This document shows, one piece after another, positions 6,001 through 9,000 of a stretch of DNA of 13,106 bases. Made by a program: the position numbers. The stretch is taken from IMG/VR virus record IMGVR_UViG_2737471857_000014, positions 1 to 13,106 of that record; one strand, 5' to 3'. Within the stretch, counting starts at the first letter, position 1. Every line of letters starts with the position of its first letter. Origin of the DNA: a virus. Lineage: Duplodnaviria; Heunggongvirae; Uroviricota; Caudoviricetes.

Positions 6001-9000
6001 TCAGGCGTAAATGCTCACCGCTTTTGCCTGTAATTTCCGGGTATATCATATTTACGCTCACTCACTTTCAATTTTGTAAATCTTCACGCCCAGCCGCCCA
6101 CCAGGAACGAGCTGACCGCGCACAATATTGATTTCATCAAACTGCTCGTCGTCTATGAGCAGTCCCGCATGTGTCAGTGCATCCAGTGGCGCTTTCAGGA
6201 TATTGTCCAGGTCACGACGACGCTTATCCGGTGGCTCGGCGATAACCTTTATCGCCAGCCTTCCGGGCAGATTTAATTTCAGCCGCTGCTGGCGGACAAT
6301 AAGTGCCACATCACGGCGATAACGCTTACCAGCTTCCGATATAAAATATGTGCTGCCACGGCGTCGCCAGTAAGTATTCACCGTCGGCGGATAAGGCAAA
6401 ACAAACTCTATACGCATCAGTAACCTCTTTTACCCGAGCACGCCGGTTGCAAAGGCGCGATCAAGAAAACGAAAAATTAAATCAATCTGGGAACCATGCT
6501 TTTCTTCGAACGCCTGCGGATCCGCATGAAGCTCGTTGTGATGCTCCCGACACAGCGGCAACGTAAAAATATCGTGGGCCTTTGTTCCCATCCCTCCCTG
6601 ACCGTGACCAATCAGGTGATGGGGATCGTCGGCTGGCTTACCACAACACGCACACGGCTGTGTCTTCACCCAGCGTGTGTATTTCTCATTTACCCAACGG
6701 CGACGTTTAGGTCGCTTCATGAAAGATTCCGGAGACTCCGGATCAACGGCAATGCTGACCACCGTCTTTTCCTGTGGCGAGATTTGTTGCTGGTGGACGT
6801 GAGGCAACGGCGCAAGATTTTTTGTGCGCTGCTTCAGTATGCTGGTGGCGGTCTGCTCTCCCGGTACGATGTCGCTTTCGCGGTAAACCGTGCGGATTTT
6901 TTCCGCACGTAATCCCAGAGAACGACGTAATACTGCCTCCGGTAGCGCGTCCGCCACCTGATTGCAGACCGCCCACCAGGATAATTCAGCCAGCGATAAT
7001 TCCCGTTCCTGTGTACCGCTTATTGCGTGACGTATGACGTCAATCATCCAGGCTGTCAGATTTTGTTGAGCAAGCTGCCCGAGTGATTCGGATGTCTGGT
7101 CGCGCAGCTGGTTGTCGCAGTGCCAGCACAACAACATTGCGCCGGTACCGTAACGATGTATGACGGTTTCACTGTGGTGATAGTCTCCATGAGGCCACTG
7201 GCAGGATTTAACATGACGCAGGAGCCAGTCAGACAGTGCGCCAGCGCCGCCGGCAGCACGAATCACCCGCTCATCGCTGAAAAATGGCAGTAATGATTTA
7301 TCTTCCGCCAGCGGCTGACGAACGGCAGGAACGACTCCGGACGGCAGACCGCGCATGCTTTTCGGTTCCGGCTCCACCAGTACCCGGGGATTATGAAATA
7401 CCTGCATGGATTCACGGCCCGGCTTAAGGACCACCAGCCCGAGTTCCGGCACCGGAACAGGTCGAAGTAATACCCGCACGTTACCTCCAGATTCGTTGCT
7501 GGAATGTGCGGGATGGACGCGGCGGGCGTTCGGAATAAGGGAGCCTGACGTAGATTATCCAGTGACGGTAGTCGAGGCTAAGGGCTTTCTTAAACTCATA
7601 CCCACGTCTGCGGTAGTTATGAATCAGCCATTCGGCCTGTTCTTCAGTGCAGGGATCGTGCTGATACCAGTCATATTTGAATGTGTGAGAACACCGCCCT
7701 TGCCTGCTGGCAGGGGCGGTATCAGAATTGTGATGTTTGGTATTGTGCGCCATCGGTTTTCTCTGCTGGCGCAGCAGGTGCCAGTTGTTCAAGCTGGCGT
7801 GCGGCAATATTGTCTCTGATTTCTGTTGTCGTCAACAGGCAACGTGCTATCATCGAATGGTGTTCTATCCTACTCCGTGAGGTTTACCATGCGTACAACC
7901 CAACAATTCAGCATTACATTAACTAACGAAATGGCTGACATGGTGCGCGCCCGTGTGGCTTCCGGTGCCTATGCTTCAGAAAGCGAGGTCATTCGTGAAG
8001 GGCTTCGCGCACTGAATGAGCGCGATAAAGCAATCGAAGCGTGGTTAACGCATTCAGCCGCCCCCTCTCTTGATTCTATCCGCGAAAACCCAAACAACGG
8101 ACGCTCCATTTCACAGGTTCGCGCCGCGATTCGATCCGGGAAGTAATCTGCATGACATATGAAGTCATCATTACTCCTGAGGCCGAACAACAAATAATCA
8201 ACCTGCACAGGTATATAACGGAGAAAGCAGGGAACGTCATTGCTGACAATTATGCCAATGCGCTTCTTGATTATCTTGATGGGTTTTCAACATTCCCGCA
8301 TCGGGGCAATAAACGCGATGATATTCGCCAGGGGATGCGGGTAACTCATTTCCGCCACAGAACGATTATTGCTTTTGCCGTTGATAGCAGAAAAATCTTT
8401 ATTGTCGGTATCTATCATGGTGGGCAAAGTTATGAAACCGATTTCTTATAAACTTTTACCCACATCATTCCGGTGTTAGAATTAACCGTCCGCCCCCTCT
8501 CTTACTGGCGGATTCGTAGGCTATATAAATCAAAGATCCCGGCTCATGTTTGTGTCGGGATCTTTTTTCGGCGATTTATCCCCAGCGGCAAATCGAATAC
8601 ACCACCAGCGCCACCGCCATCGCAATTCCTACCGTTGTGAATGCTTCAGGCCAGGTCATCGATTCACCTCCTGCTCAATATTTTTAAGGTCATTTTCCGC
8701 ATACAGTATTGCTGTCCTGGCTGCTCGTAACCGGGCTTTGGCGTTTTTCTCTTCACGTTCAAGTTTTGCCACAGCTTCACGAAGAGCATCCCGCTTTGCA
8801 TAGAGTGATTTAATCTCAGACACTATGTTTTCACCGTTTCTCGCACGGTCGAGAACAAGCTCGAACGGATCTAAAGCCAATCCGCATCGGTTACAGGTAA
8901 TCGTACGATTCACTTCTGAAATTGTTGTACGGATATGCTGACAGCATTTTTGCTCGCCGCTTTTTCTGTCGGTTATCACAACGTTGAGGAGTCCTTCCTC

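Follow-up and report, generated by a model that had tools for sequence, protein, structure and literature searches.

A predicted ParD–ParE toxin–antitoxin operon facing against its neighbours in a lambdoid Escherichia coli prophage with a SubAB-like toxin

Why does a phage region whose genes otherwise all read in one direction carry two small genes facing the other way? The question is raised by a 13,106-nt stretch of Caudoviricetes DNA (IMG/VR record IMGVR_UViG_2737471857_000014, positions 1–13,106; hereafter the window), in which a first-pass annotation, made from the sequence alone, had noticed a toxin–antitoxin (TA) module of ParD/ParE type on the plus strand. Our analysis indicates that the two genes, parD and parE, very probably constitute a conventional type II ParD–ParE operon, a moron of a lambdoid E. 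coli prophage that also carries a SubAB-like toxin. The term moron denotes a self-contained set of accessory genes equipped with its own promoter and terminator.

Identity of the antitoxin and the toxin

The parD gene starts at ATG 7889, which has a Shine–Dalgarno (SD) sequence, GAGG, 6 nt upstream and is also the start called by the Prokaryotic Genome Annotation Pipeline (PGAP) in a 99.8%-identical prophage. The resulting N-terminus, MRTTQQFS, is conserved across homologues, all of which are ~85 amino acids (aa) long. A TTG at 7826, proposed by mechanical calling of open reading frames (ORFs), is ruled out as the antitoxin start by the SD sequence, the PGAP start and the N-termini of the homologues. 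Because parD begins at ATG 7889, positions 7826–7888 are non-coding and comprise promoter and leader. The parts that the first-pass annotation had placed at 7826–8568 are found there, but its left end is regulatory rather than coding.

ParD scores above the curated cut-offs of two hidden Markov models (HMMs), namely PF03693 (ParD_antitoxin; 32.1 bits, cut-off 21) and TIGR02606 (53.8 bits, cut-off 46.2), and a profile search of the PDB with the antitoxin returns ParD antitoxins only. The AlphaFold2 (AF2) model of ParD, with a predicted local distance difference test (pLDDT) score of 89, shows an extended N-terminal segment and then helices at residues 13–24 and 31–66. It can be superposed on the ribbon-helix-helix (RHH) domains of ParD1 (8c24), VcParD2 (7b22, 7r5a) and PrpA with deviations of 1.0–1.5 Å and target-normalised template modelling (TM) scores of 0.78–0.85. 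The monomer model lacks the β-strand of the RHH fold, in line with expectation for a strand that pairs only in the dimer. Residues 52–85 are helical in the model and conserved within the orthologue set.

The RefSeq record of the Stx2a phage ArgO145 (NC_049918) begins the antitoxin at an internal methionine, giving a protein of 68 aa. This start removes the N-terminal DNA-binding ribbon strand conserved in all homologues, and it is probably mis-called.

The window ParE is 99% identical to WP_000220601.1, from which it differs by a private, conservative substitution, V82I. It matches PF05016 (ParE_toxin) over the full model length with 40.4 bits (cut-off 23), so that both proteins exceed the curated cut-offs of their families, and no NCBIfam model matches the toxin. 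PF05016 mixes RelE mRNases, in a subcluster that includes RelE of strain K-12, with ParE gyrase inhibitors (Gerdes 2025, PMC11980606). Since the family holds both kinds of toxin, the placement of the toxin within it was checked separately. A profile built from 17 ParE homologues matches only 6x0a, 5ceg, 7ycs and 8c24 in the PDB at E ≤ 10, all of them ParE-type toxins, and at this threshold none of the RelE, YoeB or HigB structures is matched. Furthermore, both chains of these four complexes match the two window proteins.

The AF2 model of ParE (pLDDT 83) comprises strand 4–7, helices 9–26 and 28–46, strands 61–67, 71–78 and 81–89, and a disordered tail, residues 90–99. The predicted fold therefore consists of β1, a long α1–α2 hairpin and a three-stranded sheet, β2–β4, with no C-terminal helix. 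In a Foldseek search with this model, ranks 1–21 are all occupied by ParE-family toxins (TM 0.66–0.72); lower scores, mostly 0.39–0.59, are obtained for YoeB, YafQ, HigB and most RelE-type chains. By profile and predicted structure, the toxin is nearer to the characterised ParE toxins than to the RelE-type mRNases.

The same results bear on the idea that the 99-aa protein is a RelE-like, ribosome-dependent mRNase that blocks translation, in which case the two genes would still be a TA pair. Such an enzyme could hide behind the PGAP label, which reads merely 'RelE/ParE family', behind the mRNase subcluster of PF05016 with its K-12 RelE (PMC11980606), and behind the lack of an NCBIfam toxin match. 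In addition, a weak, non-significant alignment with K-12 RelE sets RelE K52 and R61 on the conserved Arg59 and Arg68 of the window family, with Arg63 near RelE R56, although this alignment, of low confidence, puts K54 on the invariant Gly61 and stops before R81 and Y87. The hhalign probability for the comparison is 0.5%, which is insignificant. The predicted long α-hairpin, the lack of a C-terminal helix to bear the equivalents of RelE R81 and Y87, the restriction of PDB profile matches to four ParE toxins, the Foldseek ranking and the ParD-type RHH antitoxin encoded next door all speak against a RelE-like enzyme, which we regard as improbable. The ParD/ParE identity proposed in the first-pass annotation accordingly has the support of the HMMs, the PDB profiles and the structure comparison.

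The order and pairing of the genes agree with those of other ParDE operons. An antitoxin gene followed by a toxin gene in one operon is seen in the window, where 5 nt separate them, and in E. coli, Erwinia, Yersinia and Desulfovibrio. The pair was further compared with the solved ParDE complexes of Mesorhizobium opportunistum (5CEG, 6X0A), Mycobacterium tuberculosis (ParDE1, 8C24), Vibrio cholerae (ParDE2, 7R5A), Caulobacter crescentus (ParDE1, 3KXE) and Pseudomonas aeruginosa (6XRW). Like the window pair, these have the antitoxin first, proteins of ~80–90 and 95–105 aa, an RHH N-terminus and a ParE fold with a long α-hairpin and a three-stranded sheet, and their two chains are matched by the two window proteins. 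The window pair differs from them in its sequence, with a toxin identity of ~15–25%, an RHH-domain identity of ~30–35% and no detectable similarity in the C-terminal half of ParD, and in that it lies within a lambdoid prophage, whereas they are plasmid-, superintegron- or chromosome-borne.

Transcription signals and the divergent antirepressor operon

Coordinates of the features are collected in Table 1. The first-pass annotation had credited the module with its own promoter, and a promoter-like site of σ70 type does lie upstream of parD. On its own, this pattern is no commoner than expected by chance (3 sites against 2.1 expected in shuffles); in the orthologues from E. coli, Erwinia and Yersinia, both hexamers are kept and the spacer is divergent.

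Table 1. Positions of the parDE cassette, its neighbours and the loci compared with it (L-prefixed coordinates refer to comparison loci; all others to the window)
Feature	Coordinates	Strand	Description
parD	7889–8146	+	85-aa RHH antitoxin; PGAP WP_001260977.1
parE	8152–8451	+	99-aa ParE-family toxin, 5 nt past parD stop; PGAP WP_000220601.1
parDE promoter	7826–7853	+	σ70; −35 TTGTCG, 16-nt spacer, extended −10 TGcTATCAT
Palindrome	7823–7838		CTGTTG-tcgt-CAACAG; overlaps two divergent −35 boxes; candidate ParD operator
Divergent promoter-like site	7806–7835	−	TTGACG, 18 nt, AATATT; −35 at 7835–7830
Leader block	7858–7883	+	AATgGTGTTCtATCCTACTCcGTGAG, 26 nt; downstream of −10; includes SD (GAGG)
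parE 3′ untranslated region	8452–8531	+	promoter-like site 8455–8482, hairpin 8487–8515
Intrinsic terminator	8532–8571		hairpin and T-run on plus strand, T-rich tail on minus strand
27-aa ORF	8576–8659	−	hydrophobic, unannotated
AraC-type regulator gene	4158–4871	−	helix-turn-helix regulator
SubAB-like locus	1561–3488	−	SubA-like gene and two SubB-like genes
SubA-like gene	1992–3023	−	S8 peptidase
SubB-like genes	3075–3488; 1561–1995	−	B subunits
isrK–C4 leader	L002 4059–4241; L009 2459–2643; L011 2456–2643	−	minus strand of the loci
ArgO145 antitoxin as recorded	L002 4382–4588		68 aa, internal start
Orphan parD loci	L003 2584–3562; L013 2650–3628		Stx2a phages and strain RM10042
relBE–hokD	L015 4620–5373		Qin, strain K-12
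hokD	L014 1981–2136		strain M1/5
hok/gef	L007 4808–4963		strain OkiPb01697, with parDE
Second RelE/ParE-family module	L001 16774–17679		same prophage, outside the window

The operator-like palindrome of the first-pass annotation exists, but its six-bp arms carry no statistical weight: 25 comparable inverted repeats lie within 1 kb, which rules out the palindrome as a significant feature, and in ArgO145 the inner 5 bp alone are retained. It is better explained as the overlap of two divergent −35 boxes. The leader block downstream of the −10 element is conserved across genera more strikingly than the palindrome, and its core, ATCCTACT, recurs as an inverted copy upstream of the Desulfovibrio orthologue. 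Either the palindrome or the leader block could be the operator of ParD. An Rfam scan of the window leader and 3′ untranslated region (UTR) gave no match at E ≤ 1. At the left junction, homology with 'empty' prophages stops at ~7803, and high identity to ArgO145 begins at ~7824.

The terminator claimed for the module stands on firmer ground. The hairpin at 8532–8565, followed by T6 on the plus strand, folds with −20.7 kcal/mol (z = −5.5; none of 200 shuffles as good), and one relative shows a compensatory A-U to C-G change in the stem. As the minus strand also folds (−14.8 kcal/mol, z = −3.7), with a T-rich tail next to it, the terminator is probably bidirectional, serving parE and the convergent minus-strand genes. 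A simple terminator scan missed this hairpin because of its interrupted loop; a weak site reported by the scan at 8986–9003 lies inside a minus-strand gene and was disregarded. Between parE and the terminator, the 3′ UTR contains a further promoter-like site (TTTACC, 16 nt, TAGAAT, with an upstream TG) and a stable hairpin. These elements are kept in most E. coli copies and absent in strain OkiPb01697, and the region could give rise to a short 3′-derived RNA.

The upstream region is different in the relatives. In ArgO145, Erwinia and Yersinia, parD stands back-to-back with a conserved 300-nt leader encoding the IsrK small RNA and the C4 antisense RNA, which is followed by an antirepressor gene of ORF6N/P22_AR_N type. 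The module is immI-like, and its −35 box overlaps that of parD; the counterpart of the minus-strand site in these three loci (TTGACG, ~17 nt, TATATT) is directly upstream of the leader. In addition, numerous Stx2a phages, as well as some 37 complete genomes, have a parD without parE, with the promoter and the first five parE codons retained. Past these codons, the orphan loci contain a lipoprotein-like ORF and then an orphan gene for a HigA-family antitoxin, so that in both loci listed in Table 1 two toxin-less antitoxins stand in tandem beside the antirepressor operon. Orphan and window parD share 86% nucleotide identity; 12 of the 13 protein differences fall in the C-terminal half and none in the RHH domain.

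These observations raise the possibility that ParD is chiefly an Arc/Mnt-type phage regulator of the divergent promoter, with ParE as a co-repressor or enforcer. On this reading, the promoter would drive the antirepressor operon in the ArgO145, Yersinia and Erwinia phages and the genes for the 90-aa protein, DUF968, RusA and the Q-like protein in the window. The overlap of two −35 boxes on opposite strands within the palindrome, the back-to-back arrangement with isrK, C4 RNA and antirepressor gene in three genera, and the persistence of an orphan parD with a fully conserved RHH domain beside that operon after loss of parE would all fit a regulator. The layout resembles mnt/Pant in immI of P22. 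However, in the window the isrK–C4–antirepressor operon is absent and has been replaced, what is left of the minus-strand promoter, with AATATT and an 18-nt spacer, is weak, and binding of ParD at the divergent promoter is putative; adjacency may reflect mere co-inheritance. Furthermore, the nin-region junction is found in 328 E. coli genomes versus 42 for the isrK junction, ~37 of the latter apparently with orphan parD. We therefore give a chiefly regulatory ParD little credence, and a ParD that doubles as an Arc/Mnt-like repressor on the shared palindrome, as the motif overlap might suggest, no more than that.

Were such a dual role real, decay of the antitoxin would free ParE and derepress phage genes together, coupling the TA pair to induction or to expression of late genes and toxin. 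In the window, the minus-strand promoter-like site faces the genes for a 90-aa protein, DUF968, RusA and the Q-like protein, with those for the SubAB-like toxin and lysis further along. On this view, Stx2a phages would keep the orphan parD either for its regulatory function or for protection from the ParE of rival prophages (anti-addiction). Taken together, the orphan parD and the immI-like operon leave a small chance of a regulatory or anti-addiction role for ParD.

Mobility of the cassette and its predicted role

A conventional TA operon that travels as a moron remains the reading that we favour, and its distribution bears on this. Among 5426 complete E. coli genomes, parE is found in 328, at 334 places, all chromosomal and none on plasmids, and parD in 365. 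The junction with the gene for the 90-aa protein, as in the window, is present in 328 genomes, while 2199 carry the flank of that gene. Since only 328 of these 2199 have it, the pair is accessory and mobile, not core, and the possibility raised in the first-pass annotation that it belongs to a conserved core set of phage genes does not hold: in other phages it also occupies other positions. The toxin is encoded in 4 of 50,697 phage records. In ArgO145 a 98%-identical copy occupies the left arm, where it too is oriented against the adjoining genes; orthologous pairs with 63–67% toxin identity are found counter-oriented at other positions in Erwinia and Yersinia prophages, and a 52%-identical pair in Desulfovibrio. 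The toxin family as a whole comprises 2421 representative clusters at E ≤ 0.001.

The cassette has its own promoter and terminator, lies between phage genes, is present in some relatives and absent from others, and falls in the PHROGs category 'moron'. In a near-identical RefSeq prophage, all annotated features spanning the window lie on the minus strand except the ParD/ParE pair, and the three tRNAs of the window are on the minus strand too, which bears out the earlier description of the module as the only plus-strand unit. Its assignment to a nin-like region is likewise correct, as the pair lies between replication/DUF1627 genes and the DUF968–RusA–Q-like genes.

Pairwise ratios of nonsynonymous to synonymous substitution (dN/dS) are 0.06–0.21 for parD and 0.07–0.27 for parE, which indicates purifying selection on both. 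The parE-less derivatives in Stx2a phages and the private V82I of the window ParE might suggest that the module is a remnant, decaying or inert, or a chance pair of ORFs. That substitution is conservative, though, and both ORFs remain intact in 328 genomes, with a dN/dS of ~0.1–0.2 and strong HMM and structure matches. A remnant is already contradicted by these conservation data, and we consider it extremely improbable.

The slot upstream of DUF968–(RusA)–Q in lambdoid prophages is a recurrent home of TA genes. It holds relBE–hokD in the Qin prophage of K-12, hokD in strain M1/5, and parDE with hok/gef in OkiPb01697. The last strain has, in addition, a gene for a PemK/MazF toxin downstream of Q. 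In Qin the position of relBE–hokD is near-equivalent to that of the window pair, with one short unrelated gene (rem) upstream of the DUF968–Q block, and Qin YdfU is 88% identical to the window DUF968 protein. The Qin relBE genes are likewise a type II TA pair of the RelE/ParE superfamily, but read in the same direction as the phage genes; RelE, an mRNase, has no significant similarity to the window toxin, and RelB belongs to another RHH family. The 90-aa protein next to the window pair was considered as a homologue of Qin Rem, and no homology was found.

Two further groups of relatives are carried on mobile elements. PaaR2–PaaA2–ParE2 of E. coli O157:H7 prophages (5CW7/5CZF) is a prophage-borne system whose ParE-family toxin has a TM score of ~0.71 to the window ParE; it differs in having three components, with a separate helix-turn-helix (HTH) regulator and a short antitoxin without a DNA-binding domain, where the window has two, with an RHH antitoxin. 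PfiT/PfiA of the Pseudomonas phage Pf4 (9W3A) and PrpT/PrpA of Pseudoalteromonas (7YCS) combine a ParE-like toxin with an RHH antitoxin and are among the best matches of the window pair in both structure and sequence.

The mechanism outlined here is modelled on the ParDE systems of RK2, Caulobacter, Vibrio and M. tuberculosis. ParD would dimerise through its N-terminal RHH domain and repress its own operon by binding to an operator at the promoter, while its helical C-terminal half would wrap around ParE and neutralise it. ParD is expected to be proteolytically labile, so that ParE would be freed once ParD synthesis stops, whether because the prophage is lost or silenced or because host transcription is shut off. 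Free ParE would then poison DNA gyrase, leading to double-strand breaks, SOS induction and growth arrest. The pair should be expressible in the lysogen from its own promoter, because this promoter is independent of pR and pL and oppositely directed. The cassette is oriented against the phage early operon, and during lytic growth antiterminated early transcription would cross it antisense.

Gyrase is a plausible target of the window ParE because ParE1 of M. tuberculosis (8c24) is a gyrase inhibitor (PMC10899793). The net role of the pair is most likely addiction, that is, selfish maintenance of the prophage segment, with exclusion of other phages as a plausible side benefit. Prophage stabilisation and abortive infection, both raised in the first-pass annotation, are reasonable suggestions. 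The alternative that abortive infection is the primary role, with an invading phage halting host transcription or degrading ParD and ParE arresting the cell first, is attractive in that the cassette is prophage-borne, patchy, mobile and equipped with its own promoter, like many defence morons; the same slot houses other TA modules, and the RelE/ParE superfamily has been discussed as a source of defence toxins (PMC11980606). Neither ParD nor ParE matches a PADLOC-DB v2 model at E ≤ 0.01, though, there are no defence genes nearby, and we found no published ParDE-type example for this family. As addiction accounts for the same distribution, a primary defence role appears unlikely, if still worth entertaining.

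Several points weigh against the assignment of a conventional, gyrase-poisoning ParDE operon. The HMM matches of ParD are confined to residues ~3–51 (~6–51 for PF03693 and TIGR02606), its C-terminal half is without a sequence match to the solved ParDs, and membership of PF05016 on its own does not separate ParE toxins from RelE mRNases (PMC11980606). The promoter matches at 9 of 12 positions and the palindrome is short. A literature search for experiments on the module, the protein or the ArgO145 TA pair found none. Finally, the relatives PrpT and PfiT reportedly act in plasmid copy-number control and in Pf4 phage production, respectively, rather than by simple gyrase poisoning, and because other roles have been assigned to these toxins the gyrase target is not certain.

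The pair itself is already known: it is labelled as a TA system by RefSeq/PGAP, in the ArgO145 GenBank record and in PHROGs, so that the discovery value is small. WP_001260977.1 and WP_000220601.1 in prophages of Shiga-toxin-producing and enterotoxigenic E. coli, and gp08 and gp09 of ArgO145, are the same genes (98–100% identity), and PHROGs 6494 and 5232 are the same pair; the existing labels are ParD-family antitoxin and RelE/ParE-family toxin. ArgO145 differs in the place of the cassette, which lies beside the isrK–C4–antirepressor operon in the left arm rather than in the nin region. TA cassettes help to fix toxin-converting prophages in pathogenic E. coli, and a gyrase-poisoning toxin in a prophage with a SubAB-like toxin, or elsewhere with Stx2a, might in principle contribute to the SOS response by which such prophages are induced. 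Leads for experiment are the TA 'hot spot' upstream of DUF968–Q, the toxin-less parD and the immI-like back-to-back operon.

The surrounding prophage

The window comes from a lambdoid E. coli prophage with a SubAB-like toxin; in the kilobase that was compared, its identity to a prophage of the bovine E. coli strain OkiPb01676 is 99.8%. In the near-identical RefSeq prophage, the minus-strand order is DUF1627, methyltransferase, DUF551, small ea-type genes and the 90-aa protein, then DUF968, RusA, the DUF1133 Q-like protein, an AraC-type regulator and three tRNAs, and finally the SubAB-like toxin locus, holins and an M15 endolysin.

The SubAB-like locus occupies the site that stx has in Stx phages, past the Q-like gene, the AraC-type regulator gene and the three tRNAs and before the holins and endolysin. 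Its S8 peptidase matches SubA (PDB 2iy9) with E = 5.6e-157 and is flanked by two distinct genes for SubB-like B subunits, which are 45% identical to each other. A literature search, of titles only, returned no obviously matching title for a prophage-borne SubAB with two B subunits. The AraC-type HTH regulator is encoded upstream of the SubAB-like locus, with the Q-like gene on one side and the tRNAs on the other, and could regulate the SubAB-like toxin genes.

On the other side of the terminator, which lies between it and the convergent parE, an unannotated ORF encodes a hydrophobic peptide of 27 aa (MTWPEAFTTVGIAMAVALVVYSICRWG) behind a strong SD sequence (AGGAGGTG) and overlaps the stop codon of the 8656–9051 gene by ATGA. 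We considered whether it might encode a type I toxin or an additional, third part of the module, and ruled this out: it is translationally coupled to its neighbour and conserved in 90 phage records, mostly without parE. Because it is conserved also in phages that lack parDE, it belongs to the neighbouring phage operon.

Outside the window, the same prophage carries a second module of the RelE/ParE family with a PaaR–PaaA–ParE-like layout, which consists of an HTH regulator, a RelB-family antitoxin and a RelE/ParE toxin and lies beside the immunity region and a YdaT-family gene.

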